A stretch of DNA of 64,000 bases from an uncultured Chloroflexia bacterium (GTDB lineage: Bacteria; Chloroflexota; Limnocylindria; Limnocylindrales; CSP1-4): positions 56,943 to 120,942 of the forward strand of contig CAVYQR010000002.1 in assembly GCA_963770795.1 (NCBI GenBank), read 5' to 3'. The notes below the pieces were generated by a model. The model was given only the letters and a program-made list of their open reading frames with translations. It did no database searches and was not told the origin of the DNA. Position 1 is the first letter of the stretch. Every line of letters begins with the position of its first letter. Positions 22,552-46,684 of the stretch are shown piece after piece. The position numbers were made by a program, and so were the translations under genes.

Positions 22552-22554
22552 GCC

Positions 22555-26939: not shown

Positions 26940-26940
26940 G

Positions 26941-29106: not shown

Positions 29107-29109
29107 GGC

Positions 29110-29994: not shown

Positions 29995-30176
29995 CGCCGC
30001 AAGTGTCCCGCCCGACCGCGTCACGGTCCCCCGGCCCCGGGGCATCCGTTCGGGCGGTCGCCGTTGCCCGATCGGGTGATCGCACCCGCCCGACCGCCCG
30101 CGCGGGCGGTCCTTGTTCGCGTGCCGTGCGGGTGGGAGCCTCGGCATGTCCGGTCATCGTACGGAAGGGGCGTCAT
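29995..30176. promoter_or_regulatory. divergent intergenic promoter region between the eCIS cap/ATPase/cargo operon and the sheath-led structural operon
   Basis: 182-bp gap between the divergent starts; promoters not identified by motif. Confidence 0.4.
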
Positions 30177-31694
30177 ATGCCGAGCTACCTGTCACCCGGC
30201 GTCTACGTCGAGGAGGTGCCGTCCGGCTCTCGACCGATCGAGGGTGTCGGGACCGCCGTCGCGGCGTTCGTCGGCCTCGCGGCGAAGGGCCCGTTCAACG
30301 AGCCACGGCTGCTCACCAACTGGGGGCAGTTCACCTCGACGTTCGGCGACTTCATGGAGGGTTCCTACCTCGCCCATGCGGTCTATGGATACTTCCTGAA
30401 TGGCGGCGGGTCCTGCTACCTGGTGCGCGTCGGTGCCGACGGAGCCCAGCCGGTCGCACGGGTGGAGCTGCCGAGCGCCGCCGATGCCGCGAAGCCCGCC
30501 TTCCGCGTCACGGCGCAAGAGCCCGGCGCGGCGGGCAACGACCTGAGCGTCGATATCGCCGAACCCAGCGACGCCGGCGAAGGGGTCTTCAAGCTCGTCG
30601 TGAAGCAGGGCGGCAAGACCGCGGAGACCTTCGACAACGTGACCGTCGGCCGCGGCAAGCAGAACGTGTCGACGGTCGTCAAGGCGCAATCGAAGCTCAT
30701 CACCATCGAGGAGGTGGGCTCACTGGCCGCCCCGGCAACCGCGTCCGCGGCCGCGCTCAGCGGCGGCAGCGCGAGTGTCCCCGCCCGCGTGACGCCCGAC
30801 GACTATGTCGGGAACTCGGCGGATCGGACCGGCTTCGCCGGCCTGGAAGCCGTGGACGAGGTCACGATGCTCGCCGTGCCCGACCTGATGGCCGTGTACG
30901 AGCAGGGGATCATCGACCTCGAGGGCGTCCTCGCCGTCCAGCTCGCGATGATCGCCCACTGCGAGCTGATGGGCGACCGCGTCGCCATCCTCGACGCGCC
31001 TCCAGGCCTCAACTCGCAGCAGGTCAAGGAGTGGCGGGTCGACAAGGCCGGCTACGACAGCAAGTACGCGGCCCTCTACTGGCCCTGGATCAAGGTGTTC
31101 GATCCATTGTCCGGCCAGGCGAAGTTCGTCCCGCCCGGGGGGCACATGGCCGGCGTCTGGGCCCGGAACGACGACACCCGCGGGGTCCACAAGGCCCCGG
31201 CCAACGAGGTCGTCCGCGGCGCCATCGCCCTCGAGCTCCAGGTGACCAAGGGCGAGCACGACGCGCTCAATCCGAATGGGATCAATGTCATCCGTTCCTT
31301 CCCCGGCCGCGGGATCCGCGTGTGGGGCGCCCGGACGCTCTCGTCCGATCCCGCCTGGCGCTACCTCAACGTCCGGCGCCTGTTCAACTACGTCGAGGAG
31401 TCGATCCTCGAGGGGACCCAGTGGGTCGTCTTCGAGCCGAACGACATGGCCCTCTGGGAGCGCGTGAAGCGGACCGTCGGCTCATTCCTGCTCGGGGTCT
31501 GGCGGGACGGTGCGTTGTTCGGGGCCACCCCGGACGCGGCGTTCTACGTCAAGTGCGACGCAGAGACCAACCCGCCGGACGTCATCGACCGCGGGCAGCT
31601 CGTCGTCGAGGTGGGAATTGCCCCGGTGAAGCCCGCCGAGTTCGTCATCTTCCGCATCGCCCAGTTCTCGGGCGGCGCGGGCGTCAGCGAATAA
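30177..31694 (+). CDS. contractile tail sheath protein (eCIS sheath)
   Basis: N-terminus MPSYLSPGVYVEEVPSGSRPIEGVGTAVAAFVGLAAKGP is the canonical sheath signature; 505 aa. Confidence 0.9.
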   Translation: MPSYLSPGVYVEEVPSGSRPIEGVGTAVAAFVGLAAKGPFNEPRLLTNWGQFTSTFGDFMEGSYLAHAVYGYFLNGGGSCYLVRVGADGAQPVARVELPSAADAAKPAFRVTAQEPGAAGNDLSVDIAEPSDAGEGVFKLVVKQGGKTAETFDNVTVGRGKQNVSTVVKAQSKLITIEEVGSLAAPATASAAALSGGSASVPARVTPDDYVGNSADRTGFAGLEAVDEVTMLAVPDLMAVYEQGIIDLEGVLAVQLAMIAHCELMGDRVAILDAPPGLNSQQVKEWRVDKAGYDSKYAALYWPWIKVFDPLSGQAKFVPPGGHMAGVWARNDDTRGVHKAPANEVVRGAIALELQVTKGEHDALNPNGINVIRSFPGRGIRVWGARTLSSDPAWRYLNVRRLFNYVEESILEGTQWVVFEPNDMALWERVKRTVGSFLLGVWRDGALFGATPDAAFYVKCDAETNPPDVIDRGQLVVEVGIAPVKPAEFVIFRIAQFSGGAGVSE

Positions 31695-31706
31695 GGAGCC
31701 GCCTGA

Positions 31707-32165
31707 ATGCCTTTCGGACTGCCGAGCCTGCCCAACGACGCGATCGCGTCGTACCACTTCTCCGTCGAGGTCGACAGCCTGGAGATCGCCCAGTTCTCGG
31801 AGCTCTCCGGGATCACGAGCGAGATCGACGTCATCGAGCTCAAGGAGAACATGCGCGACGGGAAGCCGGTCATCAAGAAGCTCCCGGGCGCGCGCAAGCC
31901 GCCGACCATCACCCTCAAGCGCGCGAAGAGCGCATCGATGGACCTTTGGAACTGGCACGCCGCGATGCGCGACGGCGACGTCGCCGGCGCCCGCAAGAAC
32001 GGCTCCGTCGTCCTCTACGACTACACCTTCGGGGAAGTGGCCCGCTACAACTTCCTCAACGGATGGGTGTCCAAGATCACGATGGGTGCGGCCAAGGCCG
32101 GGGCCAACGAGGTCCTGACCGAGGAGGTGACAATCGTGTGCGAAGAGCTCGTCCGGGTGAAGTGA
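31707..32165 (+). CDS. tail tube protein (T4 gp19 / Afp1-like)
   Basis: 152 aa; YHFSVEVDSLEIAQFSELSGITSEIDVIELKEN...KKLPGARKPPTITLKRA pattern. Confidence 0.85.
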   Translation: MPFGLPSLPNDAIASYHFSVEVDSLEIAQFSELSGITSEIDVIELKENMRDGKPVIKKLPGARKPPTITLKRAKSASMDLWNWHAAMRDGDVAGARKNGSVVLYDYTFGEVARYNFLNGWVSKITMGAAKAGANEVLTEEVTIVCEELVRVK

Positions 32166-32166
32166 C

Positions 32167-32589
32167 GTGATGGCCGGCGCCGAGGCTCCTGCCGCCCGGG
32201 TCGGGCGGCAGGATCCCGCGCTGCGGACGGAATTCCCGTTCGTCCTGCCGCGCGGTTACGTCGACGATGCGGGGGTTGTTCACCGCGACGGCGTCATGCG
32301 CCTGGCAACGGCGCGCGACGAGATCCTCCCCCAGCGCGACCCGCGCGTTCGCGAGAACGAGGCCTACCTGACGGTCCTCCTGCTGGCCCGGGTCGTGATG
32401 CGGATCGGCACGGTGTCACCGGTCACGACCGGGACGATCGAGGGCCTGTTCGCGTCCGATCTCGCGTTCCTCCAGGACCTCTACCGGCGGGTGAACGCCG
32501 AGGGCCACAGCCAGGCCGCCGTGACCTGCCCGGCGTGCAAGCACGAGTTCATGGTGGACCTGGCGGGTGATTCCCCGGGGGAATCGTGA
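32167..32589 (+). CDS. tail-assembly-chaperone-like protein (G-like ORF)
   Basis: 140 aa with good GC3, positioned between the tube and tape-measure-like genes; ends 10 nt after a CCCGGGG heptamer. Confidence 0.55.
   Translation: MMAGAEAPAARVGRQDPALRTEFPFVLPRGYVDDAGVVHRDGVMRLATARDEILPQRDPRVRENEAYLTVLLLARVVMRIGTVSPVTTGTIEGLFASDLAFLQDLYRRVNAEGHSQAAVTCPACKHEFMVDLAGDSPGES
32574..32580 (+). promoter_or_regulatory. candidate -1 programmed ribosomal frameshift site CCCGGGG (XXXYYYZ)
   Basis: Heptamer in the X_XXY_YYZ phase of the upstream ORF. The -1 frame opens at 32571 (after a TGA at 32568) and continues to 32741. Confidence 0.45.
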
Positions 32590-32741
32590 CGTACCCGACC
32601 GATCGCCTCTTCGAGGAGGTCGCGTACGTCGCCTACCACCTTCACTGGTCGTTCGAAGAGCTCCTCGACCTGGAGCATCCGGTCCGACGCCGGTTCGTCG
32701 AGGAGATCGACCGGTTGAACCGGCGTTCCGAGGAGGGTTAG
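32586..32741 (+). CDS. GT-like extension ORF (52 aa, -1 frame, overlaps the upstream stop as GTGA)
   Basis: VTYPTDRLFEEVAYVAYHLHWSFEELLDLEHPVRRRFVEEIDRLNRRSEEG; high GC3; not in the ORF track because it is short. Confidence 0.5.
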   Translation: MTYPTDRLFEEVAYVAYHLHWSFEELLDLEHPVRRRFVEEIDRLNRRSEEG

Positions 32742-32747
32742 ACGCGG

Positions 32748-34830
32748 ATGAATCTCGGGTCGCTGGTCCGGCGGCTCGTACCGGGCGCGCGCCCGTCCCG
32801 TGCCGGCGAGCAATCGGGTCCCGTCGGCACGGGTGTGCCGGGCGGGGATGCGTCCCTGCCTGGCCCGATCACGGCCGGCGAGTGGAGGTCTCTGCCGCCG
32901 ATCCAGAGAACGGTGGGCGCCATGCCGCTGATCGCACCCGGCGCACCATTCAAGGCCGGCCTCGCAGCGGCACGGCCCGCGCCTTTCGCGCTCGCGCCCC
33001 TCGGCCACGAGCGGCGCCTCGAGGCGCCGGCCGGGCTCGCGATCGGGATCGCGACCCCGGTGCAGCGTGCCCCGGCCGAGCCCCTCCCCACCTCCGTTCG
33101 CCGGCGGGGAGGGGCTGGCCACGGGCCGGGCACCGCGACAACCGGGGCCATCCACTGGCCGGACGCAGATACCGGGGAACCTGCCGCCGAGGGCCCGGCC
33201 GAGGCCAAGGGCGGCGAGGCACCCGCCGGCACATCGGTGAGACCGCACCCCGTCGAGGGACCGTCGCTCGTCTCAGGCCCATCGACGGCGACACCGCCGA
33301 CGGGGCTCGTCGGGATGGCCGCCGTGGCGCGATCCTTCTGCCGTCGCACAGCGGAGCGCCGAGGGCCTCGACTCGTCGGCCGGGAGCGCGCCGGTCGCGC
33401 TCGGCCCGCCCGTCGCGCTCCCGGCCGGGCTGGCGCCGTCCAACGCTGCGGAGGCATCAGTCGGGACGGCCGGCGCGCCCACGGCGCCGCTCGCCGGGTC
33501 TGGGCCGCCGCTGGTGGCGCGGCGCGTGCGGCTCGGCCCGCCCGTGCGCTCGCTGGGCTCCGCCGGGCCGGTCGTGGCCCATCCCCCGGGGAGTTCCGCC
33601 TCACAGGGCCAGCCGACCGTCGCCCGCGCTCCGGGCTCCCCGCCCGCGCCGGGCTCCCCGCCCGAGCGTGAGGCGGCTGCTGCAGGGGAACCGGTCGCCC
33701 CTGGCGAGGCTGCGGCCGTGCCGGTCACCGCGCCCCCGGGGGCTCCGCCCTCCCTTCAGGCCCTTTCAGCCGGATCTGGTGCCGTCCAGCCCGACGCCAC
33801 CGAGCCGGCGCCACTCGGAGCCCGAGGGGCGGCCGCGTCCGCCCTGGGTCCCCCCGTGGTCCTCCGGACCGCCGGCCCGGCGCGCCGCCCGAGCGCACCG
33901 CTTGTCGGCGGCCTGCGGCCGTCCGCCCACCTGGGCCACCCGGGAGTCATCCCGCGGTCCTCCGCGCCGGAGCCGGACGCGGCCCGGGCCGACGAGATCG
34001 GCAGCCCGTCCGCCGCGCTGGCCGCCCTCGCACGTGTCGACCCCTTCGGTGGCCCGTTCGGTGACACAGCGCCCGGCCCTGGCACCGGGTTCATCGCGCC
34101 CGGGGAGCCACCCTGGTCCGCCCCCTTCGCCGGTCGACCTGCCGGGTTCGCGCCGCAGTCCCAGCCCGGGTTCGCGTCGCAGTCCCAGCCCGGCGCCGGG
34201 TTCTCTGCGATGCCGGCGGTATCCCGGTCCCTTGGCGCAGGGGACGACGCCCAGGCGGACGACGGGCCCGGCCTCACCTGGACGAACCCGTGGGCCCCGC
34301 GAGGCGCCTCCGAGACCGCCGAGCGGCCGGGCTCCGGACCGTCACCACGAACGACGGATGTGGGCCTGAGGTCCGCGCAGCCCATCGTGTCTCGCGCGCC
34401 GTCCGGCCCGTTCGTGCCGAGGCCCCGGGGGCTCCGTGTCGCACCGGCGATCCAGCGCCGCGTGACCCAATCGGGCAGCCAGTCCGAGGACGCGCAGGCC
34501 GAGCGTGCCCCCGCGTCGGAGCCGCTCGACGGCTGGGGGACCGGACGGAACGCGCCAGCGGTCGCGCGCCTGGCGGACACGGCCGCCCCGCCGGTCAACC
34601 TGGCGCCGCTGCAGCGGGCCGAGGACGCGACCTCCGTGGCTCCCACCGCGGGCGCGGATCCCGCCTCGGGCGTGGCCGGCGGGACATCCGGGGCGCCCGG
34701 CAGTCCCGCGGCCGAGAAGGAGCTCGACGACCTCGCCCGACGGCTGTACGACCGGATTGGCCTGCGCCTGCGCCGCGAGCTGCTCGTCGAGCGCGAGCGG
34801 TCCGGTGCGCTCGTTGACCGGGGGTTCTGA
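32748..34830 (+). CDS. Pro/Ala-rich tape-measure-like protein (frame break between 33241 and 33671)
   Basis: Frame 0 (32748..33671) and frame 1 (open 33241..34830) both show a coding GC3 pattern. The C-terminus ELDDLARRLYDRIGLRLRRELLVERERSG is well formed. Position after the chaperone pair matches a phage tape measure. Confidence 0.4.
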
Positions 34831-34875
34831 GATGGGCAACACGCTGGTGCCCGGCGCGTGCGAGGGGACAGCCAG

Positions 34876-35304
34876 ATGACCGACACGGCGCTTGGCCTGC
34901 GCTTCCACGTCACGATCGACGGCAAGGACAGCCTCGGCGACTGGACGAAATGCGAGGGCCTGACCGTCGAGTACGACGTGTACGAGTACAAGGAGGGCGG
35001 GCTGAACGCGTACGTCCATCGCCTGCCGGGCCGGGCCAAGTACCAGAACCTCAAGCTCACACGGCCGGTGACCAAGGCCACCGCCGACGTCCTGGCGTGG
35101 TTGTCGAAGGTGAAGCCCGATGTGGAGCGGACGACTGCCAAGGTTGCCGTGCTCGACGAGGCCGGCACCGAGATCGCCGCCTGGACCTTCTACCAGGTCT
35201 ATCCGCTGCGTTGGACGGGGCCCACGCTCGACGTCGGCCAGAACCAGGTCGCCACCGAGACGCTCGAGCTGTGTCACGCGGGCTTCCTGAGCATGGCCGG
35301 GTGA
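34876..35304 (+). CDS. second tube-like protein (gp19 family / Afp5-like)
   Basis: LRFHVTIDGKDSLGDWTKCEGLTVEYDVYEYKEGGLNAYVHRLPGRAKYQNLKLTRP is the tube-family signature. Confidence 0.8.
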   Translation: MTDTALGLRFHVTIDGKDSLGDWTKCEGLTVEYDVYEYKEGGLNAYVHRLPGRAKYQNLKLTRPVTKATADVLAWLSKVKPDVERTTAKVAVLDEAGTEIAAWTFYQVYPLRWTGPTLDVGQNQVATETLELCHAGFLSMAG

Positions 35305-35308
35305 CGCG

Positions 35309-35992
35309 ATGAGCGACCAGTACGTCTTCGCCGCACTCCGGGTCGTCGAGGGAACCGTCTCCGGCGACACGGAGCTGTACTTCGACTTCAACCCAGGCGA
35401 GTACTCGGTCGACAAGAGCTCCACCTGGACGCGCCCCCAGATGAAGGGCGGCAAGCAGACCGGCAAACCGGAGTTCCAGGGGGCAAACGCCCAGATCGTC
35501 AAGATGGAGATCCTGTTCGACCAGTACGTCTCCGGGCCGGACGTTGCCAAATCGGTCAACACGCTGCTGGAGTGGATCAAGCCAACCGACGACTCGGTCA
35601 AGAAGAAGAAGCCCCAACCGCCGATCGTCATGTTCGAGTGGGGGCCAAACCCCGCCCTGACCTCGTTCCGCGCCTACGTGAAGTCCGTCGCGTCCAAGTT
35701 CATCCTGTTCAACAGCGACGGCACGCCGCTGCGGGCGACGGCGACCGTAACGCTGGAAGAGGTCCCGATCCCGGCCCCCAAACAGAACCCCACCTCGGGC
35801 GCCATTCACGGCCGGCGCACCCACCTGGTCGCCGAGGGCGACACGCTGGCCTCGATCGCCTGGGCCGAATACGAGGATCCGACGCTGTGGCGTGGGATCG
35901 CTGCCTTCAACGAGATCGACGATCCGCTGCGGGTGCAGCCGGGCCGGTCGATCCTGATCCCCACCGCCGACGAAGCGCGGCGCAGGTCCTGA
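35309..35992 (+). CDS. tube-initiator / baseplate protein with a C-terminal LysM domain (Afp7 / P2 gpX-like)
   Basis: C-terminal LysM (HLVAEGDTLASIAWAEYEDPTLWRGIAAFNEIDDPLRVQPGRSILIP); N-terminal tube-like fold region. Confidence 0.8.
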   Translation: MSDQYVFAALRVVEGTVSGDTELYFDFNPGEYSVDKSSTWTRPQMKGGKQTGKPEFQGANAQIVKMEILFDQYVSGPDVAKSVNTLLEWIKPTDDSVKKKKPQPPIVMFEWGPNPALTSFRAYVKSVASKFILFNSDGTPLRATATVTLEEVPIPAPKQNPTSGAIHGRRTHLVAEGDTLASIAWAEYEDPTLWRGIAAFNEIDDPLRVQPGRSILIPTADEARRRS

Positions 35993-35998
35993 TCCGCG

Positions 35999-37711
35999 AT
36001 GGCCACGTTCGCGCAGCAGACCACGGTCGAGATCGACGGCACGCCACTCGACGCGGCCCTGGAGCCGCTCGTGGAGCAAGTGGTCGTGGAGGACTACCTC
36101 CACCAGCCGGACATGGTCACCATCACGTTCCGGGACATCGAGCGCACGGTCGTGGCGGACGCCCGCATCCGGATCGGGTCGAAGCTCAAGGTCTCCGCGA
36201 GCTCGGTCGGCGGCCAGGCGCCCGAGGTGCTGGCGCTGGTGGAGGTCACCGCGCTGGAAGCCGAATACACGGCCGCGGGCTCGCGCGCGGTCGTCCGAGC
36301 CTACGACCCTTCGCACCGTTTCCATCGCGGCCGTCGGACGCAGACGTACGTGGGCATGAAGGACTCCGACATCGCCCGCGAGGTCGCCCAGCGAATCGGG
36401 GTCGAGGTGGGCACCGTGGAGGACTCCGGCCCGGTGCTGCCCCACGTGTCCCAGGCCAACGAGACCGATTGGGCATTCCTCGAGCGCCGGGGCCGCGAGA
36501 TCGGGTTCGAGGTCGCCGTCAACGAAGGGAAGTTCTCGTTCCGCAAACCGACCGATGCGGCCGCAGCACCCGGTGACGGCGACTACGACTCGACCGATCC
36601 GCTGAAGCTCGTGTTCGGGCAGGACCTCCTCGAGTTCCACCCGCGCATCAGCTCGGCCGAGCAGGTCGGCGAGGTGATCGTCAGAGGCTGGGACATGAAT
36701 GGGAAGCAGGCCGTGGTCGGTCGGTCTCCGGCCTCCGCCGCCTCGGCCACATTGAGCACCGGCCCGGCCCAGCTCGCGAAGACGTTCGGCGATCCGACGT
36801 ATACGTGCGTCGATCGCCCCGTCGCAACGCAGGCCGGCGTGGACGCCACCGCCAGGGCCCTGTCGGAGCGGATCGGCAGCGCGTTCGCCGAGGCGACGGG
36901 TGTGGCCCGCGGCAACCCGAAGCTGAAGGCCGGAACGGCGGTCAACGTGAGCGTCGTGGCCGACGAGTTCGCCGGCAAGTACGTGATCACGACCTCACGC
37001 CACGTGTTCGATCAGGACGGCTACCGCACGCGGTTCATCGTGTCAGGCCGCCTCGACCGGTCACTGCTCGGGCTGGCGACCGCCGGCGCCGACGGCCGGT
37101 CGCAGGAGTCCCGGATCAACGGGGTGACCGTCGCCCTGGTCACCAACAACACCGATCCGGACGGCCTTGGGCGGGTGAAGCTCACGTTCCCGTGGCTGGG
37201 CGACGGCTACGAGTCGGACTGGGCGCGCCTGGTGCAGCTGGGGGCCGGCCCGGACTCCGGGGCGGTCTGGCTGCCCGAGGTCAGCGACGAGGTGCTCGTC
37301 GCCTTCGAGCAGGGGGACGTGAGCCGGCCGTACGTCGTCGGAGGGCTGTGGAACGGCAGGGACAAGCCGCCCCTGGGTGAAGCACTGACCGACAACGGGA
37401 GGGTGAAGCGCCGCGGCTTCGTGTCCCGGCAAGGCCATCGTGTGGTGCTTCTCGACGGCGATGACGACTCCGGGATCGCCCTGCTCAGCGCCGACTCCAA
37501 GCTGCGGATCTCCCTCAACCAGACGAAGACCGAGATCCATGTGACGTCCGACGGGACGATCGTCATCGAGTCGACCGGCGACCTCAGCCTGAAATCCTCC
37601 GCCAACGTCAGCGTCGAGGCATCGGGGAACCTGACGCTCAAGGGCGGCGGCATGGTCAAGATCCAGGGCGCATCCGTCGACATCGACGGCTCGCCCATCA
37701 CGTTGAACTAG
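35999..37711 (+). CDS. VgrG / phage late-control gene D (gpD) spike-hub protein (Afp8-like)
   Basis: 570 aa; gp27/gp5-like order with the conserved PYVVGGLWNGRDKPP region and a C-terminal beta-helix-like repeat. Confidence 0.85.
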   Translation: MATFAQQTTVEIDGTPLDAALEPLVEQVVVEDYLHQPDMVTITFRDIERTVVADARIRIGSKLKVSASSVGGQAPEVLALVEVTALEAEYTAAGSRAVVRAYDPSHRFHRGRRTQTYVGMKDSDIAREVAQRIGVEVGTVEDSGPVLPHVSQANETDWAFLERRGREIGFEVAVNEGKFSFRKPTDAAAAPGDGDYDSTDPLKLVFGQDLLEFHPRISSAEQVGEVIVRGWDMNGKQAVVGRSPASAASATLSTGPAQLAKTFGDPTYTCVDRPVATQAGVDATARALSERIGSAFAEATGVARGNPKLKAGTAVNVSVVADEFAGKYVITTSRHVFDQDGYRTRFIVSGRLDRSLLGLATAGADGRSQESRINGVTVALVTNNTDPDGLGRVKLTFPWLGDGYESDWARLVQLGAGPDSGAVWLPEVSDEVLVAFEQGDVSRPYVVGGLWNGRDKPPLGEALTDNGRVKRRGFVSRQGHRVVLLDGDDDSGIALLSADSKLRISLNQTKTEIHVTSDGTIVIESTGDLSLKSSANVSVEASGNLTLKGGGMVKIQGASVDIDGSPITLN

Positions 37712-37720
37712 GGGTTTGGG

Positions 37721-38107
37721 ATGGGAGCGCCGGCGATCGTCATGGGCGACAGGATCACGGGGATGTGCGCGATCCACCAGATCCCCAACCCGGCCAGCGG
37801 CGTGCCGCAGCCAGGTCCGCCGATGCCGTTCAGCGCGCCGATCACCATGAGCACCGTCCCGAGCGTGATGATCGGCGGCAAGCCGGCCGCCGTGGCGGGA
37901 AGCCAGGGCCCCAACACGCCGCCGCACGTGGGGCTGCACCCGGCGGACCCGTACCTGGCGCCTCCCATGCAGATCGGCAAGATCGTGTCCGGCAGCGCGA
38001 CGGTGCTCATCGGCGGCCAGCCGGCGGCGTCCGCCTCATCGCCGTGCACCTGCTGCGCGACCCCGGGGACCCTCGTGCCGACCGTCACCACCGTGCTCAT
38101 CGGATAG
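37721..38107 (+). CDS. PAAR-domain spike tip protein
   Basis: 128 aa directly after VgrG; SVMIGGKPAAVAGS and ATVLIGGQPAA PAAR-like motifs. Confidence 0.65.
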   Translation: MGAPAIVMGDRITGMCAIHQIPNPASGVPQPGPPMPFSAPITMSTVPSVMIGGKPAAVAGSQGPNTPPHVGLHPADPYLAPPMQIGKIVSGSATVLIGGQPAASASSPCTCCATPGTLVPTVTTVLIG

Positions 38108-38117
38108 GAGGGGAACC

Positions 38118-38516
38118 GTGAGCCAGGAATTCATCGGGCAGGGTTGGGCCTTCCCGGTCACCACGGACGCGACAGGGGGCATCCGCCTCGTGTCCCGGGA
38201 GGCCGAGATCGAGCAGAGCATCCGCCTGATTCTCTCAACGGCGCCCGGGGAGCGCCCGATGCGGCCCGAGTTCGGGTGCGCCATCCATGACTACGTGTTC
38301 GATCCGGCGGACGGCCGCACCGCGGCCCGGATGTCGTTCGCTGTTCGCGAGGCGCTTCGTCGCTGGGAGCCGCGGATCGACGTCATCGACGTGCGTGTCG
38401 ACCGTCACCCGGACGCGGACGACGCGCTCCTGCTGGACATCCGCTACACGACGTCCGACACCAACGACCCGCGCAATCTCGTGTTCCCGTTCTACGTCAT
38501 CCCCGGCGAAGGCTGA
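38118..38516 (+). CDS. baseplate wedge protein gp25/GPW family (Afp9-like)
   Basis: GQGWAFPVTTDATGGIRLVSREAEIEQSIRLILSTAPGERPMRPEFGCAIHDYVFDP is the GPW/gp25 signature; GTG start with a GGAGGGGAA RBS. Confidence 0.85.
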   Translation: MSQEFIGQGWAFPVTTDATGGIRLVSREAEIEQSIRLILSTAPGERPMRPEFGCAIHDYVFDPADGRTAARMSFAVREALRRWEPRIDVIDVRVDRHPDADDALLLDIRYTTSDTNDPRNLVFPFYVIPGEG

Positions 38517-38548
38517 GCCTCGACCACCAACCCAGGAGCGCAGCCCTG

Positions 38549-40501
38549 ATGGTGTTGCCCGTCCCGAACCTCGACGACAGGCGCTTCCAGGATCTCGTCG
38601 ACGACGCCAAGCGCCTCATTGCGCGCCGCTCGCCGGAGTGGACTGACCACAACGTATCCGACCCGGGCGTGACGCTCATCGAGCTGTTCGCATGGATGAC
38701 GGACCAGCTCATCTACCGGCTCAACCGGGTCCCGGACCGGCAGTACGTCGCCTTCCTCGACCTCCTCGGGGTCAAGCTGTTTCCGCCCACCGCGGCGCGG
38801 ACGAGCGTCACCTTCTGGCTCTCCGCCCCCCAGGCGGATACGGTCAAGATTGCGCTGGGCACCCAGATCGCCACGGTCCGGACGGAGACCGAGGAAGCGA
38901 TCGTGTTCGAGACAGTCGACGAGCTGGCGATCGTTCGGGCGTCGCTGCTGAGAGTCGGCTCTCAGATCGACGGCCGCACGATGCGTGATCACGGCGAGGC
39001 ACTCCAGAAGCGAACTCGCTTCTACTGTTTCGACGAGGTGCCGAAGCCAGGCGATGCGCTCTACATCGGGCTCACAGAGGCAGTTCCGTCGTGCGCCGTC
39101 ACCCTGCGGTTCACCTGCGACATCGAGGGCGTCGGGGTGGATCCGGAGCGCCCACCCCTCGCGTGGGAGGCGTGGGATGGCGACGAATGGGTGGCATGCG
39201 AGTTGGAGCGTGACGAGACCGGCGGCATCAACAGGGACGGCGACGTCGTCATCCACGTGCCGGACAGCCACGTGGCGTCCGTGATCGACAAGCAGCGGGC
39301 AGGATGGCTGCGGGCTCGGGTCATCGAACCAGTGGCAGACCTGCCGCGCTACAGCGCGTCCCCCTCGATCGGCGGCCTCACCGCCTTCGCGATCGGCGGC
39401 AACGTCGACGCGGTGCATGCCGCGCTGATCGACGTTGACGACCTCGGCGTGAGCGAGGGGATCCCGGGACAGAGGTTCGAGCTCCGGAGGCGTCCGATCG
39501 TTCCAGGCGACGCAGACCCGGTGCTCGAAGTGGCCGATGAGGGCGAGGAATGGGTCGAGTGGACCCTCGTCGACGACTTCTCCATGTCCGGGGAGGAGGA
39601 CCTGCACTTCACCATCGACGCCGTCGCGGGACAGCTCGCCCTGGGTCCGGCCGTCCGCCTGGCCGATGGCGCGTTGGTGCGCTACGGGGCGACGCCGCAG
39701 AAGGGCGCCCGGCTTCGCCTACGCGGCTACCGGACGGGTGGCGGCGTGCGCGGGAACGTGGCCGGTCGCGCCATCTCCGTCCTTCGGTCGTCCATCCCGT
39801 ACGTGGCACGGGTCGAGAACCGGCGGCCGGCGGTGGGCGGCGTTGACGGAGAGGACCTGGAGAACGCCAAGGTCCGGGGACCGATGCTGCTCCGGACCCG
39901 CGGCCGAGCGGTGACGACCGATGACTTCGAGCACCTGGCACGGAGCGCGGCACCCGAGGTCGCCCGAGTGAAAGCGGTGACCGCGGGCGAAGGAAGCGAT
40001 CCGGGGTCGGTCCGGGTCCTGGTTGTGCCCGCCGCAGCGCCGAGTGGGGGCATGCGCCTGCAGTTCGCGCAGCTGGCTCCGTCGGAGGCAACGCTCCAGC
40101 GGATCACGGACCGCCTCGAGGAGACACGGGTGATCGGGACGCGGGTCGTCATCGAGCCCCCCGTCTACCGCGGCGTCACCGTCGTGGCGCGCGTACGGGC
40201 GCGGCCCCGCGCCAAGCCCACCCGCCTCCAGGCAGACGCGCTCGACACCCTGTACGCGTACCTGGACCCGATCAGCGGTGGACCGGACGGGACGGGGTGG
40301 CCGTTCGGACGCCCGGTCACCGCCGGTGAGCTGAACGCCGTGCTCCAGCGCCTGGGCGGCGCCGAGCTGGTCGAAGACCTCCGGATCTTCGGCGCGGACC
40401 CGGTCACCGGCCAGCGCGGCCAGCAGACCGCGCGCCTGGAGCTCGAACCCACCGCTCTGGTCTTCAGCTACGAGCACCAGGTCCTGGTGGAGGGATCCTG
40501 A
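38549..40501 (+). CDS. baseplate J / gp6-like protein (Afp11-like)
   Basis: N-terminus NLDDRRFQDLVDDAKRLIARRSPEWTDHNVSDPGVTLIELFAWMTDQLIYRLNRVPD matches the Baseplate_J family; 650 aa. Confidence 0.85.
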   Translation: MVLPVPNLDDRRFQDLVDDAKRLIARRSPEWTDHNVSDPGVTLIELFAWMTDQLIYRLNRVPDRQYVAFLDLLGVKLFPPTAARTSVTFWLSAPQADTVKIALGTQIATVRTETEEAIVFETVDELAIVRASLLRVGSQIDGRTMRDHGEALQKRTRFYCFDEVPKPGDALYIGLTEAVPSCAVTLRFTCDIEGVGVDPERPPLAWEAWDGDEWVACELERDETGGINRDGDVVIHVPDSHVASVIDKQRAGWLRARVIEPVADLPRYSASPSIGGLTAFAIGGNVDAVHAALIDVDDLGVSEGIPGQRFELRRRPIVPGDADPVLEVADEGEEWVEWTLVDDFSMSGEEDLHFTIDAVAGQLALGPAVRLADGALVRYGATPQKGARLRLRGYRTGGGVRGNVAGRAISVLRSSIPYVARVENRRPAVGGVDGEDLENAKVRGPMLLRTRGRAVTTDDFEHLARSAAPEVARVKAVTAGEGSDPGSVRVLVVPAAAPSGGMRLQFAQLAPSEATLQRITDRLEETRVIGTRVVIEPPVYRGVTVVARVRARPRAKPTRLQADALDTLYAYLDPISGGPDGTGWPFGRPVTAGELNAVLQRLGGAELVEDLRIFGADPVTGQRGQQTARLELEPTALVFSYEHQVLVEGS

Positions 40502-41124
40502 TGCGCGGCCTGGTTGCCGACCTGCCCAACCCGCACCCCCTCGGCCGCCGGCTCCCGGCTGTCTACCAGGAGGAGGATCCGTTCACGATGCGCCTCACCG
40601 AGGCGCTCGACGACGTTCTTGCTCCAATCCTGTGCACGCTCGACAACCTGCCGGCCTACTTCGATCCGCGCCTGACGCCCGACGACTTCCTGGGCTGGTT
40701 GGCCGGCTGGGTCGCGTTCGATCTCGATGAGACCTGGGACGCTTCACGGCGCCGGGCGGCCGTCGTTCAGGCCGTTGATCTCCTCCGTCGCCGGGGAACG
40801 GCCTCGGGGCTCGTGGACGAGATTCGGCTGGTGACGGGGGCAGAGGTTGAAGTCGTGGAGAATGGCGGGACCGCGTGGTCGCTCGACGCGATGAGCCCGA
40901 TAGTGGGCACGCCGGAGCCAACGCTGCTGGTCCGGATCACCGCCGCCGACCCGGCCTCGATCGACGCCGATCACGTTGACCGCGTGGTTGTGGCCGCCAA
41001 GCCTGCCCACGTCCCGCATCGGATCGAGATCGTCAGCGTGTCGCCTGGGCGCAAGTCAAAGCCCAAGGCGACTGAGGGCCAGCCCGCGGGTGGCGACGAG
41101 ATGCCCGCCGGCTCTGGTGGCTGA
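40501..41124 (+). CDS. phage tail protein I-like baseplate protein (P2 gpI / Afp12-like)
   Basis: LPAVYQEEDPFTMRL...LDNLPAYFDPRLTPDDFLGWLAGWVAF matches the P2 gpI family; translationally coupled to the upstream gene. Confidence 0.75.
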   Translation: MRGLVADLPNPHPLGRRLPAVYQEEDPFTMRLTEALDDVLAPILCTLDNLPAYFDPRLTPDDFLGWLAGWVAFDLDETWDASRRRAAVVQAVDLLRRRGTASGLVDEIRLVTGAEVEVVENGGTAWSLDAMSPIVGTPEPTLLVRITAADPASIDADHVDRVVVAAKPAHVPHRIEIVSVSPGRKSKPKATEGQPAGGDEMPAGSGG

Positions 41125-41253
41125 CCTGCTCTTGGGGTTGCTGTGCGCGGGTCAGCCTGACCACGCCCCGCGAGGGCCGCGACTGGAGCCACGAGATGGC
41201 CGGTCCCGCGGCTATGCTGCGGATGTCCACGTGGGCTTCGGGGAGCAGCTCGA

Positions 41254-43506
41254 GTGATTGTCTGCGGCAACTGCGGCGCAAAGAACCAGGAGTCGGACGC
41301 CTTCTGCGGGGAGTGCGGCAAGTTCCTCGAGTGGGTCGGCAAGCGCACGGACGAGGCCCCAGCCCTCCGGGAACCGGAGGTTGCCGCGGCGGCGGCAGAG
41401 GCGCAGCGCAGGCAGGACGAGGTTGCCGCGGCGGCAGCGGCGCAGGCGGCAGCGGCGGCAGAGGCGGCGGCAGAGGCGCAGCGCAGGCAGGACGAGGTTG
41501 CCGCGGCGGCGGCAGAGGCGCAGGCGGCGGCAGAGGCGGCGGCGGCAGAGGCGGCAGAGGCGGCGGCGGCAGAGGCGGCGGCGGCAGAGGCGGCGGCGGC
41601 AGAGGCGGCAGAGGCGGCAGAGGCGGCGGCGGCAGAGGCGGCGGCGGCAGAGGCGGCCGAGGCGGCCGAGGCGCAGCGCAGGCAGGACGAGGTTGCCGCG
41701 GCGGCAGCGGCGCAGCGCAGGCAGGACGAGGTTGCCGCGGCGGCGGCAGAGGCGCAGCGCAGGCAGGACGAGGTTGCCGCGGCGGCGGCAGAGGCGCAGC
41801 GCAGGCAGGACGAGGTTGCCGCGGCGGCGGCAGAGGCGCAGCGCAGGCAGGACGAGGTTGCCGCGGCGGCGGCAGAGGCGGCGGAGGCGCAGCGCAGGCA
41901 GGACGAGGTTGCCGCGGCGGCAGCGGCGCAGGCGGCGGAGGCGCAGCGCAGGCAGGACGAGGTTGCCGCGGCGGCGGCAGAGGCGCAGGCGGCGGAGGCG
42001 CAGCGCAGGCAGGACGAGGTTGCCGCGGCGGCGGCAGAGGCGCAGGCGGCGGCAGAGGCGGCGGCGGCAGAGGCGGCAGAGGCGGCGGCGGCAGAGGCGG
42101 CCGAGGCGGCGGCGGCCGCGGCGGCCGAGGCGCAGCGCAGGCAGGACGAGGTTGCCGCGGCGGCAGCGGCGCAGCGCAGGCAGGACGAGGTTGCCGCGGC
42201 GGCAGCGGCGCAGCGCAGGCAGGACGAGGTTGCCGCGGCGGCAGCGGCGCAGCGCAGGCAGGACGAGGTTGCCGCGGCGGCAGCGGCGGCAGAGGCGGCG
42301 GCGGCTGAGGCGGCCGAGGCGCAGCGCAACGTTCCTCGTGCCCGCCGCGGCGGACCGTCGAGGCCGGCGGCGATCACGATCGCCGCCGCGCCCGCGTCAG
42401 ACGCGACGACGGCCGATGACCAGGAGGCCCCGGCGATCACGCCCTCGATACCACGCCCCGATGACGACGGACCATCGGCTGGTGGGCCTGCCGCCCAGCC
42501 AGAAGCTATCCAGCCGGTCGGGCATCCGCCGGGCGAACCACCCGTCGACGCGCTGCCAGCCGTCCGGCCGACGGCTGTCGCGCCCCGGGCGGCAGCATCA
42601 GGCTCCACCCAGCCACCGGCCCGTACCCCCGTTGCAGAGCCCGACCAGCCTGTCGCACGCCAGCCCACTGCAGATCGGCCGACCGAGGCCAGGCCACGGG
42701 CCGCGGCCACCCCCGAGCGCCGTGTCCCTCGGCCGGGTGATCGGCTCTGCGTGGCTTGCGGCGAGGCAAACGACCCGGCGCGCAAGTTCTGCAGGCGGTG
42801 CGGCGCCGACCTCCTTGAGGCCCGGGTCGTCGCGGCGGCACCACTACCTTGGTGGAAGCGGTTGTTCCGGCGGAAGCCCAAGCAGTACGCAGCCGGCGAA
42901 CGGACGAGAACCATGCAGCCCGGCAAGACCGGGCGAAGGAGCACGGGCATGGGCCGAATCCGGCTGAGGCAGGTGGTCGAGTGGGTCCTGGGTCTCCTCG
43001 TCCTCCTTGGCATCATCGGGTACCTCGCCGTGCCCGGCATGCAGCAGATCATCAACCGGGCCGTGTCAAGCGGGGTCGATTCGATCCAGCGCACGGTGAA
43101 CCCGCGCCTGGAGCCCGTCCGACCGGCCCGGGCCGTGGCGTCGGACGAGATCGAAGACCACCCGGGCGCGAACCTGTTCGACAAGTACGCGAACACGGAC
43201 TGGCGTGCCTCCTCCGCGCAACCCGCCGTTACCGCGACATTCGACGAGACCTTTGATCTCGGCGCGCTGATCGTCTACTCGGGAGCCGCCGAGAACTTCA
43301 CCGAGACCAGGCGACCCGCGAAGATCCAGCTCACATTCCCCGACGGTTCGTCGACTGTGCTTGACCTCAAGGACGACAACGCCAAACAGACGATTACGGT
43401 CGAGAAGTCGGGAATCGACGAGTTCGAGCTGACGATCGTCGAGACCTACGGCCCGGCGGACCGCCCCGTCACGATTTCCGAGATAGAGGTCTTTGCGCGT
43501 CGATAG
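41254..43506 (+). CDS. CisA-like bitopic membrane protein: double zinc-ribbon, Ala/Glu/Gln repeat, TM, discoidin-like C-terminal domain
   Basis: CGNCG...FCGECGKFLEW and CVACG...FCRRCG ribbons; TM (VVEWVLGLLVLLGIIGYLAV); C-terminal domain homologous to 13978..15135; occupies the position where Afp-type loci encode the tail fibre. Confidence 0.7.
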   Translation: MIVCGNCGAKNQESDAFCGECGKFLEWVGKRTDEAPALREPEVAAAAAEAQRRQDEVAAAAAAQAAAAAEAAAEAQRRQDEVAAAAAEAQAAAEAAAAEAAEAAAAEAAAAEAAAAEAAEAAEAAAAEAAAAEAAEAAEAQRRQDEVAAAAAAQRRQDEVAAAAAEAQRRQDEVAAAAAEAQRRQDEVAAAAAEAQRRQDEVAAAAAEAAEAQRRQDEVAAAAAAQAAEAQRRQDEVAAAAAEAQAAEAQRRQDEVAAAAAEAQAAAEAAAAEAAEAAAAEAAEAAAAAAAEAQRRQDEVAAAAAAQRRQDEVAAAAAAQRRQDEVAAAAAAQRRQDEVAAAAAAAEAAAAEAAEAQRNVPRARRGGPSRPAAITIAAAPASDATTADDQEAPAITPSIPRPDDDGPSAGGPAAQPEAIQPVGHPPGEPPVDALPAVRPTAVAPRAAASGSTQPPARTPVAEPDQPVARQPTADRPTEARPRAAATPERRVPRPGDRLCVACGEANDPARKFCRRCGADLLEARVVAAAPLPWWKRLFRRKPKQYAAGERTRTMQPGKTGRRSTGMGRIRLRQVVEWVLGLLVLLGIIGYLAVPGMQQIINRAVSSGVDSIQRTVNPRLEPVRPARAVASDEIEDHPGANLFDKYANTDWRASSAQPAVTATFDETFDLGALIVYSGAAENFTETRRPAKIQLTFPDGSSTVLDLKDDNAKQTITVEKSGIDEFELTIVETYGPADRPVTISEIEVFARR
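41401..42330 (+). repeat. about 930 bp of 42-bp tandem repeats encoding EAQRRQDEVAAAAA and EAAAA variants
   Basis: gcgcagcgcaggcaggacgaggttgccgcggcggcggcagag repeated more than 15 times with Ala-run spacers. Confidence 0.9.
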
Positions 43507-43549
43507 CGGTTCGACGGCGTTCGACGCGTCCCTGGCATCGACACAGTGC

Positions 43550-46500
43550 TCAGGTTGCCACGGGCGGCGCAGGTGGCACGGACACGCCAAGGCCCGCGAG
43601 CACGGCAGCGTATTCGCGACGGTCACGGCTCGCTGCCCCGGTATCGCCTGCACGTTCTCGCGCGACGATCAGGAGCCTCCACAGCGGGTCGTGGAACCGA
43701 TCCAGCGCCAAGCCGGCGTGGCACGCATGCACGGCCCCGGCCAGATCCCCGACAGCCAGCAAGCCCGCCGCGAGCGCCACCGACGCTTCGATGGCCCCGA
43801 AGCGCACCTGCTCCCGGCGCCCGACCACCCATTCGGCCGGGCCGTCCTCGGGCAGCACGTCTCCCGGATACAACGCGAGCGCCGCCCTGAATGCCTCGAT
43901 CGCGGGCGCTCTCCGCTCCTCCAGCGACCGCGCCTCCGCCAGCGCCTGTTCGAACCGACGCACGTCCACGGCACCCGAAGGCACCACGAGCCGGTAGACC
44001 TCGCCCTGTCGCTCGATCACGCTGGTTGCATCGAGAGGGGCGACCGCGGCGAGTTGACCGCGCAGCGCGGAGATCGCGACCTGCAGGCTGCGTGCGCCCG
44101 TCGGGCCGTCGGCCTCCGGCCAGAGAGCCTCCTGCAGAACCTCGCGATGGACTGGGTCCGGCGCGTGCAGCGCCAGCAGGCGAAGCAGCGCCCGCGCGCG
44201 CGGCTTGACGCCTGTCAGGTCCAGGGGTTGCCCATCCACCGACGCCCGAAAACCTCCCAGAACGCCCACCTCGAGGCCCGTCCACCGACCGTTGGACGTG
44301 CCCGCCGGCGAGGCGGGCGACGCGACGATCGCGGCGCGCGCGGCGGGCAGCGCGAGACCTGTCTCCTCCCCCATGCCATCGGCCAGGATCGCGTACTCTG
44401 CCGCCCGATCGGGGTCCGCGAGCTCCAGCGCGCGGTAGGCGAGATGCCGCGCACCCGCCACACCGGTGAGGCGCCCGAACGCCTCGGCAGCCAAGGCTGC
44501 GTCACGTGAGCCTTCGAGACCGCTCTCAGCCTGGACGAGGGCGCCGAGCGCCCGTGCCCAGGCCTCCAGGGCGCCCGCGCCGACACTCCGGAACTGCGTG
44601 GCGGCGGTCGCTGCGTCCGTCAGCGGGCGCACCGGGTCCTCGATACCAGCCCCGGGCCGGCCTGCCGTCCTGACCCACGCGCGCACAAGGGCACCTAGCC
44701 CGACAGTCCACGGGTCGCCGTCGCACACGCCCACCGGCCCGGGCTCGCTCCCCTCCTGGTCGTCTGTCGGTACACCTGGGTCGGTCAGTTGCTGGGCGAC
44801 GCCCCGCCCGAGGTCCATCAGCCACGGCACTCCGGCGCGCTCGGCGTCCTCGATTGCTGCCGCAAGGCTCTCGGACACCTCAGGGTCGGCACGAAGCAGA
44901 TCCGCAATCGCGGCCCCGAGGCGTGCAGCTGCAGCAAGCGAGGGCTCGAGCCGTCCCTCGTGTGCAACCTGCCGGAGCGCGCGCGACGCCTCCCGGACCG
45001 AGCCCGAGGCGAGGAGCAGCAGGCCACGCACGAGCAGACCGACTGCGTCATCGAGCCCGGTAGCTTCGCGGGCCGCGGCCCGAGGGTCGCGTGCGAGGCC
45101 CGTCCTGAGGGGACCGGTCCAGTGCGCCGGCAGAATCGCCGCTGGATCTATCCAGGCGGAGAGGATCGCACGCTCACGGCGGCAGGCAGCGGACGACTCG
45201 GTTCCGCCAAGACCGGCGGCCGCGTTCGAATAGGACTCGATAGCCGCGGCCCACCTCCCCTCCGCCCTCGCACGGCGTGCCGTCGCGAGGGCAAGCCACG
45301 GGTCGTGCCGCACGAGTGCCGGTGGCAGTGCCTCAAGCCATGCCGTCCCGCCGTTCGCGAGGCGTTCCCCGCCGCCCGCGAGGAGCCGGTCGACCGCTAC
45401 CCAGTCCTCAGCTCGACACCACGCGATCAGCGCCTCCGCCAGCGCCCCGTCCGCCTCAAGCAGTGCGGCAGCTCGTGCGTAGCGCCGTCGAGCCTCGACC
45501 TCGCCAACCTGCACCACCAGGATCCGGTCCAGGTTTGACCTCAAGACCTCGTGGTACCGGTACACGTCGTCCTCATCCTCGTCCTCGACCGGCATGGTGA
45601 AGACGCTGCGGCGCGCCAGCTCGTCGAGCAGAAGGGAGCTCCCGGTCGTCCCGCGCAACCGGTCGCAAAGGCTGCCGGACAGGCGGCCCAGCACACACGT
45701 CTCCAGCAGGAACTCGCGAAGAGGATCGGGTAGCTCGGCCAGCACGTTCTGGGCCAGGTACTCCCGCAGCATTCGCCCGCGGACGTCGCCCGCGGTCAGG
45801 ACCCGCCTGCGCTCTTCGACCGACCGTCCGCGCGTCGCGAGGTGGAACAACTGGAGGCCGGCCGCCCAGCCCTCCATCCGCCTCGCCAGCGCCGCCAGGT
45901 CGGCGGGAGGCACGGGGTCGTGGTACACGTTGCGGAAGAGCTGCTCGACCTCCCACGATCGGAAGCGGAGATCGTCCTGCCCGAGCTCCAGGAGATCACC
46001 CGAGACACGGAGGCGCGGAAGGTTGATGGACGGCGGCACCCTGGAAGCAACGATCACCGCCAACCACGCGGGCGCGTAGTCGACCAGCCGCCCAAGCGCG
46101 ACCTCCGCCGGCGTCCCCTCAAGCGCGTGACCGTCATCGATCACGAGGAGGGCGGCCTCTCCGGGATGGCTCTCCAGGGCCCTGGCAACGTCGTCGATGC
46201 TCGACCAGCCGCCCGGAATGCCCGGCAACGTGGACCGGAGCGCCGCCTCGAGGTGGCGCACGAACGAATCCTCGTCTGCGTCCCAGGTCTCTGCCCGATA
46301 CCAGGCCACGGGGGCGCCACAGGTTGCGGCGAACCGCGCGACGAGCGTTGTCTTGCCAGAGCCGGCGGGTGCCACCACGAGCGTGAGGCGCTTGCCAAAG
46401 GCCTCGGCCAGGCGGGCCTCCAGGCGCTCGCGGGGCAGCGCGTCCGGGACGGGGGCGCGGACCTTCGCGGGCACCACGAGGGGCACCCGCGGCCCTACCT

Positions 46501-46684
46501 CGGACGCACCGGCCCCTGCCGATCCCCGCTTGGAGCGCTCTCGCCCGTCGCGCAATAGAGGTCTCCCTCGCCGCTCATCGCTCTCCGACGCCGGTGGGAT
46601 CCGTATCGTCCCACCATTGACGGTCGCGGTCCAGCGTCGGTCTCGGGCGCGGACGGCATTCTTCGGACCGCAGCGGCGAGGCAA
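43550..46684 (-). CDS. large ATPase-wHTH-BTAD transcriptional regulator (MalT/SARP-like hybrid)
   Basis: N-terminal P-loop (VVAPAGSGKTTL); C-terminal OmpR-type winged helix (GFRASVDGQPLDL...VYRLVV) and a BTAD region (...DPLWRLLIVARERAGDTGAASRDRREYAAVLA); precise start uncertain. Confidence 0.7.
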   Translation of the reverse strand: MPRRCGPKNAVRARDRRWTATVNGGTIRIPPASESDERRGRPLLRDGRERSKRGSAGAGASEVGPRVPLVVPAKVRAPVPDALPRERLEARLAEAFGKRLTLVVAPAGSGKTTLVARFAATCGAPVAWYRAETWDADEDSFVRHLEAALRSTLPGIPGGWSSIDDVARALESHPGEAALLVIDDGHALEGTPAEVALGRLVDYAPAWLAVIVASRVPPSINLPRLRVSGDLLELGQDDLRFRSWEVEQLFRNVYHDPVPPADLAALARRMEGWAAGLQLFHLATRGRSVEERRRVLTAGDVRGRMLREYLAQNVLAELPDPLREFLLETCVLGRLSGSLCDRLRGTTGSSLLLDELARRSVFTMPVEDEDEDDVYRYHEVLRSNLDRILVVQVGEVEARRRYARAAALLEADGALAEALIAWCRAEDWVAVDRLLAGGGERLANGGTAWLEALPPALVRHDPWLALATARRARAEGRWAAAIESYSNAAAGLGGTESSAACRRERAILSAWIDPAAILPAHWTGPLRTGLARDPRAAAREATGLDDAVGLLVRGLLLLASGSVREASRALRQVAHEGRLEPSLAAAARLGAAIADLLRADPEVSESLAAAIEDAERAGVPWLMDLGRGVAQQLTDPGVPTDDQEGSEPGPVGVCDGDPWTVGLGALVRAWVRTAGRPGAGIEDPVRPLTDAATAATQFRSVGAGALEAWARALGALVQAESGLEGSRDAALAAEAFGRLTGVAGARHLAYRALELADPDRAAEYAILADGMGEETGLALPAARAAIVASPASPAGTSNGRWTGLEVGVLGGFRASVDGQPLDLTGVKPRARALLRLLALHAPDPVHREVLQEALWPEADGPTGARSLQVAISALRGQLAAVAPLDATSVIERQGEVYRLVVPSGAVDVRRFEQALAEARSLEERRAPAIEAFRAALALYPGDVLPEDGPAEWVVGRREQVRFGAIEASVALAAGLLAVGDLAGAVHACHAGLALDRFHDPLWRLLIVARERAGDTGAASRDRREYAAVLAGLGVSVPPAPPVAT

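Follow-up and report, generated by a model that had tools for sequence, protein, structure and literature searches.

The window analyzed here, a 64,000-nt stretch of contig CAVYQR010000002.1 from an uncultured Chloroflexia bacterium (Chloroflexota, probably of Limnocylindria type), encodes a contractile injection system (CIS) island, and we put the probability at roughly 85% that the gene at 41254..43506 (+ strand; 750 aa) is the orthologue of CisA (SCO4242), making its product the membrane adaptor of a CIS-Sc-like island. The CisA family itself is known, and this locus adds modest new details: a member from outside the Actinomycetes, a variable, repeat-built spacer between two zinc ribbons, and a second CisA-like module. 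CisA of Streptomyces coelicolor is a bitopic membrane protein encoded just 3' of the baseplate genes, with an N-in/C-out topology shown by PhoA-LacZ, and in the cisA deletion mutant CIS particles stay extended and CIS-dependent cell death is lost (PMC12237407). A sugar-binding C-terminal domain of CisA was also noted (PMC10066040), and Sco4242 was described as carrying a putative Zn domain rich in Cys ahead of the transmembrane (TM) helix, as well as a conserved ~150-aa domain of carbohydrate-binding type at the C-terminus (PMC10020575). Of the family features, sequence homology, a position 3' of cis11/cis12, a Cys-rich ribbon before a single TM helix, and a carbohydrate-binding-type C-terminal domain were found in the window protein.

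Homology to CisA and locus position

For comparison with the 750-aa product, residues 1–310 of S. coelicolor CisA were taken from the AlphaFold 3 (AF3) input in the eLife supplement, and the full 468-aa sequence (P0189) was verified against that input. In BLASTP, aa 499–749 of the window protein matched aa 223–460 of CisA at E 8e-17 and 28% identity, an alignment that begins at ribbon 2 and runs up to the C-terminus, and the family profile matched CisA in hhalign with a probability of 99.9% (E 2.3e-33). Because of these two results, we regard the gene as a CisA orthologue; the resemblance to a CisA-type membrane anchor, proposed in a preliminary description of the window on the basis of architecture, thus reflects real homology, with the same order of parts and the same genomic position. 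S. coelicolor CisA starts with a zinc ribbon (CAECG..FCDACGAVLSW), followed by ~190 aa of Pro/Ala/Gly/Thr linker, ribbon 2, APWWRRLF, a basic stretch, and the TM helix. The two proteins therefore share ribbon 1, a low-complexity arm, ribbon 2, PWW[RK]RLF, the TM helix, and an NADase-type discoidin (NADase_discoid) domain, as well as the locus position, and the orientation predicted for the window protein would be that of CisA. They differ mainly in the arm between the ribbons (495 aa in the window protein vs. ~217 aa in CisA), which in the former is made up in part of perfect tandem repeats that form an acidic module of 313 aa, predicted to be helical, whereas it is Pro/Ala/Gly/Thr disorder in the latter. 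In addition, an ARRGGPSR motif, a non-actinomycete host, and a convergent MalT/BTAD regulator downstream set the window gene apart from cisA. The first 138 residues of the window Cis11 are close to those of S. coelicolor Cis11 in a side-by-side reading.

The start of the gene lies 130 nt 3' of Tail_P2_I, which agrees with its earlier placement directly behind the last baseplate gene. The two genes upstream, both on the + strand and identified by Pfam, are Baseplate_J (cis11-like, 38549..40501) and Tail_P2_I (cis12-like, 40501..41124). A search with aa 490–750 returned 67 homologues, from metagenome-assembled genomes (MAGs) labelled Solirubrobacterales and Limnocylindrales and from Streptomyces (P0067, annotated as "NADase-type glycan-binding domain-containing protein"). 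The homologues that we examined (including loci L002, L003, L006, and Streptomyces L004) lie directly 3' of Tail_P2_I in CIS clusters. A scan of species-representative genomes yielded 80 loci, mostly from Chloroflexota/Limnocylindrales MAGs, and also from Acidimicrobiia, Dormibacterota, Kribbella, Streptacidiphilus, and Knoellia. The end of Tail_P2_I was found 0–600 nt 5' of ribbon 1 in 61 of 68 loci, including those of Streptomyces (L004), Streptacidiphilus, Knoellia, Acidimicrobiia, and Dormibacterota. Other arrangements were also seen: cisA lies between Baseplate_J and Tail_P2_I in L064, L068, and L082 (Kribbella and an Actinomycetota MAG), and ~6 kb separate Tail_P2_I from cisA in two Acidimicrobiaceae loci (L071, L072).

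The reading frame has a GTG start preceded at 8–13 nt by a Shine-Dalgarno-like GGGGAG motif, and this start agrees with orthologues that begin MIVCGNCG or MIVCGSCG. The codon GC pattern is normal for a window of 70.8% GC. Scans for promoters and terminators around the gene gave no match. Three overlapping open reading frames (ORFs), 41196..42308 (+), 41258..42967 (+), and 40971..43196 (−), were rejected as genes and are considered stop-free by-products of the GC-rich repeat; their translations are Gly/Arg-rich or Ala/Ser/Cys-rich low-complexity strings.

Conserved parts of the protein, membrane topology, and the C-terminal domain

From the N-terminus, the 750-aa protein comprises ribbon 1, a tract of Ala, Glu, Gln, Arg, Asp, and Val, a Pro/Ala linker, ribbon 2, PWWKRLF, the TM helix, and a beta-sandwich. 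Zinc ribbon 1 (CGNCG..FCGECGKFLEW; aa 4–27, 41263..41334), at the predicted cytoplasmic N-terminus, matches Pfam Zn_Ribbon_1/DZR at aa 4–23, is modelled by AlphaFold2 (AF2) with a predicted local distance difference test score (pLDDT) of ~88, shows 42–90% identity across 68 loci, and is common to S. coelicolor CisA. Zinc ribbon 2 (CVACGEANDPARKFCRRCGADL; aa 499–520, 42748..42813) matches the same Pfam families at aa 497–520 (AF2 pLDDT ~90), and its four Cys are invariant among 58 homologues. It is followed by the PWWKRLF motif and a Lys/Arg-rich juxtamembrane stretch (aa 532–572, 42847..42969), which aligns to APWWRRLF of CisA and in which conservation reaches at least 90% at W533, R536, and F538. 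The motif in the form PWW[RK]R[LI]F (window 42847–42870; CisA aa 256–262) is kept from Streptomyces to Chloroflexota orthologues and is missing in the family of the CisA-like protein described below.

A single TM helix spans aa 574–596 (42973..43041), which is the sole strong hydrophobic peak of the protein (Kyte-Doolittle 2.29) and is helical in both AF2 models, one built for aa 490–750 on 58 homologues and the other for the full length. Six Lys/Arg residues lie in the 20 aa before this helix and two after it; by the positive-inside rule, this count predicts an N-in/C-out orientation, the topology suggested before, and the zinc ribbons on the N-terminal side would fit it. The C-terminal beta-sandwich (aa 619–750, 43108..43503), predicted to be extracytoplasmic, is of the NADase-type discoidin/CBM32-like type: NCBIfam NF047619 (NADase_discoid) matches with 58.9 bits (cut-off 38), Pfam PF25302 (NADase_transloc/F5-8-type-C) matches weakly at aa 635–745 (E 1e-3; 19.7 vs. 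cut-off 27), and the AF2 pLDDT is >95 in the aa 490–750 model and ~97 in the full-length model. Foldseek against the PDB returned APC10/DOC, CBM32, F5/8-type-C, and lectinolysin lectin domains (E ~5e-8), all of which are monomeric CBM-type domains. D643, T648, and W650 are invariant or nearly so among the 58 homologues; two zinc ribbons, one TM helix, and a discoidin-like domain with a D..TxW motif had been read from the sequence beforehand, and Pfam, NF047619, hydropathy, and AF2/Foldseek all bear this out. In fold and profile, the domain resembles the SPN NADase translocation domain, F5/8 type C, and CBM32 (PF25302, NF047619, PF00754), but the window protein carries no NADase or toxin moiety. 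The description of the CisA C-terminal domain as periplasmic substrate-binding-like in the eLife article was not reproduced; profile and fold both indicate the discoidin/CBM32 type, which fits the "sugar-binding" description of 2023.

The repeat module

Between ribbon 1 and the Pro/Ala linker lies a 313-aa Ala/Glu/Gln/Arg repeat module (aa 45–357, 41386..42324; array called by the tandem repeat program TRF at 41389..42321), which was delimited by composition, TRF, and AF2. Only six residue types occur in it (Ala 56%, Glu 15%, Gln 11%, Arg 9%, Asp 4.5%, Val 4.5%), its net charge is about −33, and it is predicted to be alpha-helical. The full-length AF2 model places helices at aa 40–159 and 166–356 (120 and 191 aa; pLDDT 80–91). 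The module would measure ~47 nm as a straight single helix, or ~18 and 29 nm as the two modelled helices. Fourteen copies of a QRRQDEV core are present, and the 21-nt core DNA is 100% identical in all of them and has no other occurrence in the window. Inside tandem runs the cores are spaced by 39, 42, 51, 54, or 57 bp, each divisible by three, and two Ala/Glu-only blocks separate the runs. Exact-repeat analysis identified 4.1 perfect 42-bp units (EAQRRQDEVAAAAA; 41709..41880) and 4.1 perfect 39-bp units (AQRRQDEVAAAAA; 42129..42288). Moreover, exact duplicates of 84–107 bp occur ~460–520 bp apart within the tract, indicating that a larger segment was also duplicated. Thus, the near-perfect repeat tract reported in the preliminary description exists, but its uniform 14-residue (42-bp) unit does not. 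Given that all spacings are multiples of three and that synonymous divergence between units is zero, the module has recently been expanded or homogenized through in-frame gain and loss of units, as had been suspected from the perfect DNA repeats.

Immediately 3' of the repeat module is a short motif conserved in orthologue comparison (PRARRGGPSRPAAITI; 42334..42381), and an [RK]RGGPS[RK]-like motif was found at the matching place in 17 of 46 intact orthologues, behind Ala/Glu-type (A/E) and Pro/Glu-type (P/E) spacers alike. In its longer form the motif is [PK]ARRGGPSR...T[IF], with equivalents in L007, L010, L025, L027, L036, and others, and two copies in L036. From this conservation, the ARRGGPSR motif is a candidate interaction site. 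The following Pro/Ala-rich linker (roughly aa 377–498, ~130 aa; 42382..42747) is predicted to be disordered by composition and AF2 (pLDDT 30–40), with residues 357–487 disordered in the full-length model.

Spacer variation among relatives

Ribbon 1 and ribbon 2 are 133 to 718 aa apart (median 468) in 68 loci from Chloroflexota, Acidimicrobiia, Dormibacterota, and Actinomycetes. The 495-aa spacer of the window is therefore typical in length, and the idea that spacer length is variable holds between species. Members of this clade normally have a long spacer, so that 41254..43506 carries no insertion of its own in this respect, and it is the perfection of the repeats that stands out. Spacer classes were counted over 46 related loci (redundancy removed, reading frame intact, window not among them): 11 are rich in Ala/Glu/Arg/Gln (A/E/R/Q), as in the window, 15 are Pro/Glu-rich (PEPEPV...), and 20 are Pro/Ala-rich. 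The Pro/Ala-rich spacers are usually shorter and near neutral, whereas the A/E and P/E types are strongly acidic, with a net charge of −34 in the window and down to −159 in P/E types. The closest relative, L007 (68% identity in the C-terminal part), contains diverged copies of the window unit (AEAQRKADEVAAAA), implying that the repeat module is ancestral to this sub-clade and that only unit perfection is special to the window. The best match in a metagenome scan for close relatives was 56% identical.

Many orthologue calls in databases are only 260–400 aa long and usually miss the N-terminal ribbon and the spacer, because contigs end or frames shift inside the spacer. For example, the short-read contig L001 (1–146) stops within an A/E tract, and the long-read MAG loci L002 (8344–10819) and L003 (8619–10882) have frameshifts in their repeat spacers. 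The same breaks, namely the frameshifts inside the repeats of orthologous long-read MAG regions (L002, L003, and others) and the end of L001, the contig of the closest database relative, would fit a reading in which the size and perfection of the window repeat are an assembly artefact (collapse, expansion, or consensus smoothing) and the true spacer is shorter or more degenerate. Since the tract is free of stops in each of the three forward frames, an open frame alone is no proof of a genuine array. We nevertheless consider such an artefact unlikely: ribbons 1 and 2 lie in one frame with no stop over 1.5 kb, orthologues have comparable spacers (the median given above, with 12 intact A/E-type examples), and the array is internally heterogeneous (39–57-bp spacings and two A/E blocks), unlike a collapsed consensus.

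Membrane adaptor or tail fibre

The position of the gene after the wedge genes is that of a tail fibre, and the CBM32/discoidin fold of the C-terminal domain would suit a receptor-binding protein of an extracellular CIS, with ribbon 2 on the baseplate and the C-terminal domain recognizing the surface of a target cell. Such a role was proposed for Sco4242 by Vladimirov et al. 2023, whose mass spectrometry of purified particles detected the protein (PMC10020575). However, the parts that would bind the baseplate and the glycan are separated by a TM helix, which is strongly predicted and has a basic cytoplasmic face, and CisA is membrane-bound with its C-terminus outside and is missing from the cryo-EM particle of CIS-Sc, which has no visible fibres (PMC12237407). 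Moreover, Pfam detected no fibre, trimeric-fibre, or collagen-like domain in the 41254..43506 product, which differs from the soluble trimers without a TM helix of the Afp13/Pvc13 type. We therefore regard a fibre as very unlikely and retain the membrane adaptor.

Other contractile systems also have membrane anchors. In the thylakoid-anchored CIS of Anabaena, as cited in PMC10020575, a TM helix is located in a baseplate-attached, fibre-like protein. Insofar as that secondary citation describes it, this anchor, as well as TssJLM of the type VI secretion system (T6SS), is similar to CisA in that the baseplate of a contractile system is linked to a membrane by a component dedicated to this task; both are, however, stable particle parts on this account, unlike CisA, and no sequence relationship with them was detected.

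CIS island and the convergent regulator

The CIS island extends over ~10351..46684 (36 kb) and is bordered by ADH/PEPcase at one end and by PPDK at the opposite end. Upstream (5') of Tail_P2_I are Baseplate_J, gp25, VgrG, a LysM-tube protein, two gp19-type tube proteins, DUF6760, and the sheath, and the divergent arm of the cluster contains Pvc16, an AAA ATPase, and eCIS_core. Two large proteins of the divergent arm, 19366..22551 (−; 1061 aa) and 23553..26939 (−; 1128 aa), have no Pfam match and are possible cargo or effector candidates. Convergent to cisA, at 43550..46684 (−), is an AAA/winged-helix/OmpR-BTAD (MalT/SARP-like) regulator, and a convergent regulator was found within 2.5 kb downstream of cisA in 61 of 79 loci. 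It is not beside cisA in the Streptomyces (L004) and Kribbella loci. This conserved neighbour, the double ribbons that recall the N-termini of signalling proteins (weak matches to PRK14559 Ser/Thr phosphatase), and the extracellular domain of glycan-binding type would fit a transmembrane envelope-stress sensor of anti-sigma-like build that controls island expression through the adjacent AAA/BTAD regulator and does not dock the particle, but this is highly improbable, given that S. coelicolor cells lacking cisA assemble normal particles that are defective in contraction (PMC12237407), that Streptomyces locus L004 has no regulator beside cisA, and that Pfam detected no anti-sigma or kinase-associated domain.

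A CisA-like sister protein in a five-gene module

A second CisA-like protein (385 aa) is encoded at 13978..15135 (−) and contains two ribbons, a TM helix, and an NADase_discoid domain (identified by Pfam, NF047619, and profiles), without the long spacer or PWW. A CisA-like bitopic protein is thus encoded at each end of the CIS island. In a pairwise BLASTP comparison of the two window products, only the two ribbons aligned, and a profile of 58 homologues of the 41254..43506 product aligned the second protein (E 2.6e-16) from ribbon 2 onwards, C-terminal domain included, and covered RPKKVQISV and LKDTAKAQRISL. The preliminary description had treated it as a full-length paralogue; the shared architecture and homology stand, together with the two stretches just named, which had been aligned by eye, but a full CisA paralogue it is not. 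With the CisA-type profile, CisA scores 97.8 bits and the 13978..15135 product 54 bits; with the profile of the latter's own family, the 41254..43506 product scores 57.6 bits and CisA 39.2 bits. Judged by these sequence profiles, the 13978..15135 product belongs to a sister family that forms a separate orthologous group, and is not a second or spare CisA. Both families have the double ribbon, the TM helix, and NADase_discoid, and both are encoded in the same CIS island, but the sister protein differs in its 64-aa inter-ribbon linker, the lack of PWWRRLF, a higher NF047619 score (100 bits vs. 59), and its setting in a PD40/PapD-like module. Its orthologues are present in the same genomes as CisA. 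Protein P0068 is 100% identical to it, and NCBI uses the name "NADase-type glycan-binding domain-containing protein" for this family as well.

The sister gene is part of a five-gene envelope module (10351..18483, −), which has the same gene order in L087, L088, and L089, i.e., in three independent genomes. In the window, this order is a 421-aa PapD/Cep192_D3-like protein, a 710-aa PD40 propeller, the sister protein, and proteins of 519 and 652 aa that both have N-terminal TM anchors. The PapD/Cep192_D3-like assignment of the first protein derives from a weak Pfam match (window and L087), and a central TM helix is present in the window copy; its architecture (PapD-like N-domain and TM helix) is as described for the Sco4256-type effector. 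The fourth protein has ~520 aa but 295 aa in L087, and the fifth ~650 aa. A GerE regulator is located beside the module in all three genomes, and the module directly adjoins the AAA/eCIS_core arm in L087 and L089.

Proposed mechanism

By homology to S. coelicolor CisA, the N-terminal 570 aa would be cytoplasmic, and the C-terminal domain would face the cell wall. The cytoplasmic arm would bring the baseplate of the CIS to the membrane; in Streptomyces, Cis11 is the predicted partner. Sheath contraction and firing would follow this recruitment. With low confidence, we suggest that the acidic helical module may serve as a tether, extended and repelled from the membrane, on which ribbon 1 and the ARRGGPSR motif are offered to CIS particles floating freely. 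We also offer a tentative and rather doubtful proposal: two ribbons would bracket an evolvable acidic spacer (A/E/Q/R-helical or PEPEPV-type, 133–718 aa), the length of which would be tuned by in-frame repeat gain and loss and would set the distance from the membrane at which a free CIS particle is captured and triggered; docking would have two parts, CisA and the CisA-like protein of the PD40/PapD-like five-gene module.

Several points weigh against the assignment to CisA and the mechanism drawn from it. Identity to CisA is no higher than 28%, the array length derives from one assembly, and the window CIS and its CisA orthologue are known from sequence and predicted models. In S. coelicolor, CisA is missing from the purified extended particle, the CisA–Cis11 contact is an AlphaFold prediction alone, and the cytoplasmic arm was termed "largely unstructured" (PMC12237407), implying that a rigid helical module is not needed for function in Streptomyces. 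Spacer length was also uncorrelated with how far DUF6760 lies from the second tube gene, a measure that stood in for tape-measure length and hence particle length (rho −0.05, p 0.76, n = 42), and a ruler role tied to particle length was therefore rejected.

Long spacers of comparable build occur elsewhere in single-pass membrane proteins, either as Ala/Glu/Lys helices (TolA domain II) or as extended Pro/Glu-Pro/Lys segments (TonB). The A/E/R/Q and PEPEPV spacers of CisA orthologues mirror these solutions (no homology implied), but those of TolA and TonB span the periplasm, whereas the spacer of CisA orthologues lies on the predicted cytoplasmic side, between two zinc ribbons.

Implications for the CisA family

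To our knowledge, no factor other than CisA is so far known to connect cytoplasmic contractile injection systems with the membrane. Earlier work reported CisA homologues only in Streptomyces and other Actinomycetes, with no close homologue in Roseiflexus, and the window locus and its 68 relatives indicate that the family extends well beyond Actinomycetes. Neither the N-terminal ribbon nor a variable spacer is mentioned in the CisA papers (PMC12237407, PMC10066040, PMC10020575), and the word "zinc" occurs 0 times in the eLife text; the comparisons presented here show that a conserved zinc ribbon bounds the "unstructured" arm on either side. Within the CisA family protein, it is this arm that evolves fast, with at least three compositional solutions, and the few conserved cytoplasmic elements (ribbon 1, ARRGGPSR, ribbon 2, and PWWRRLF) are therefore candidate baseplate-binding sites.

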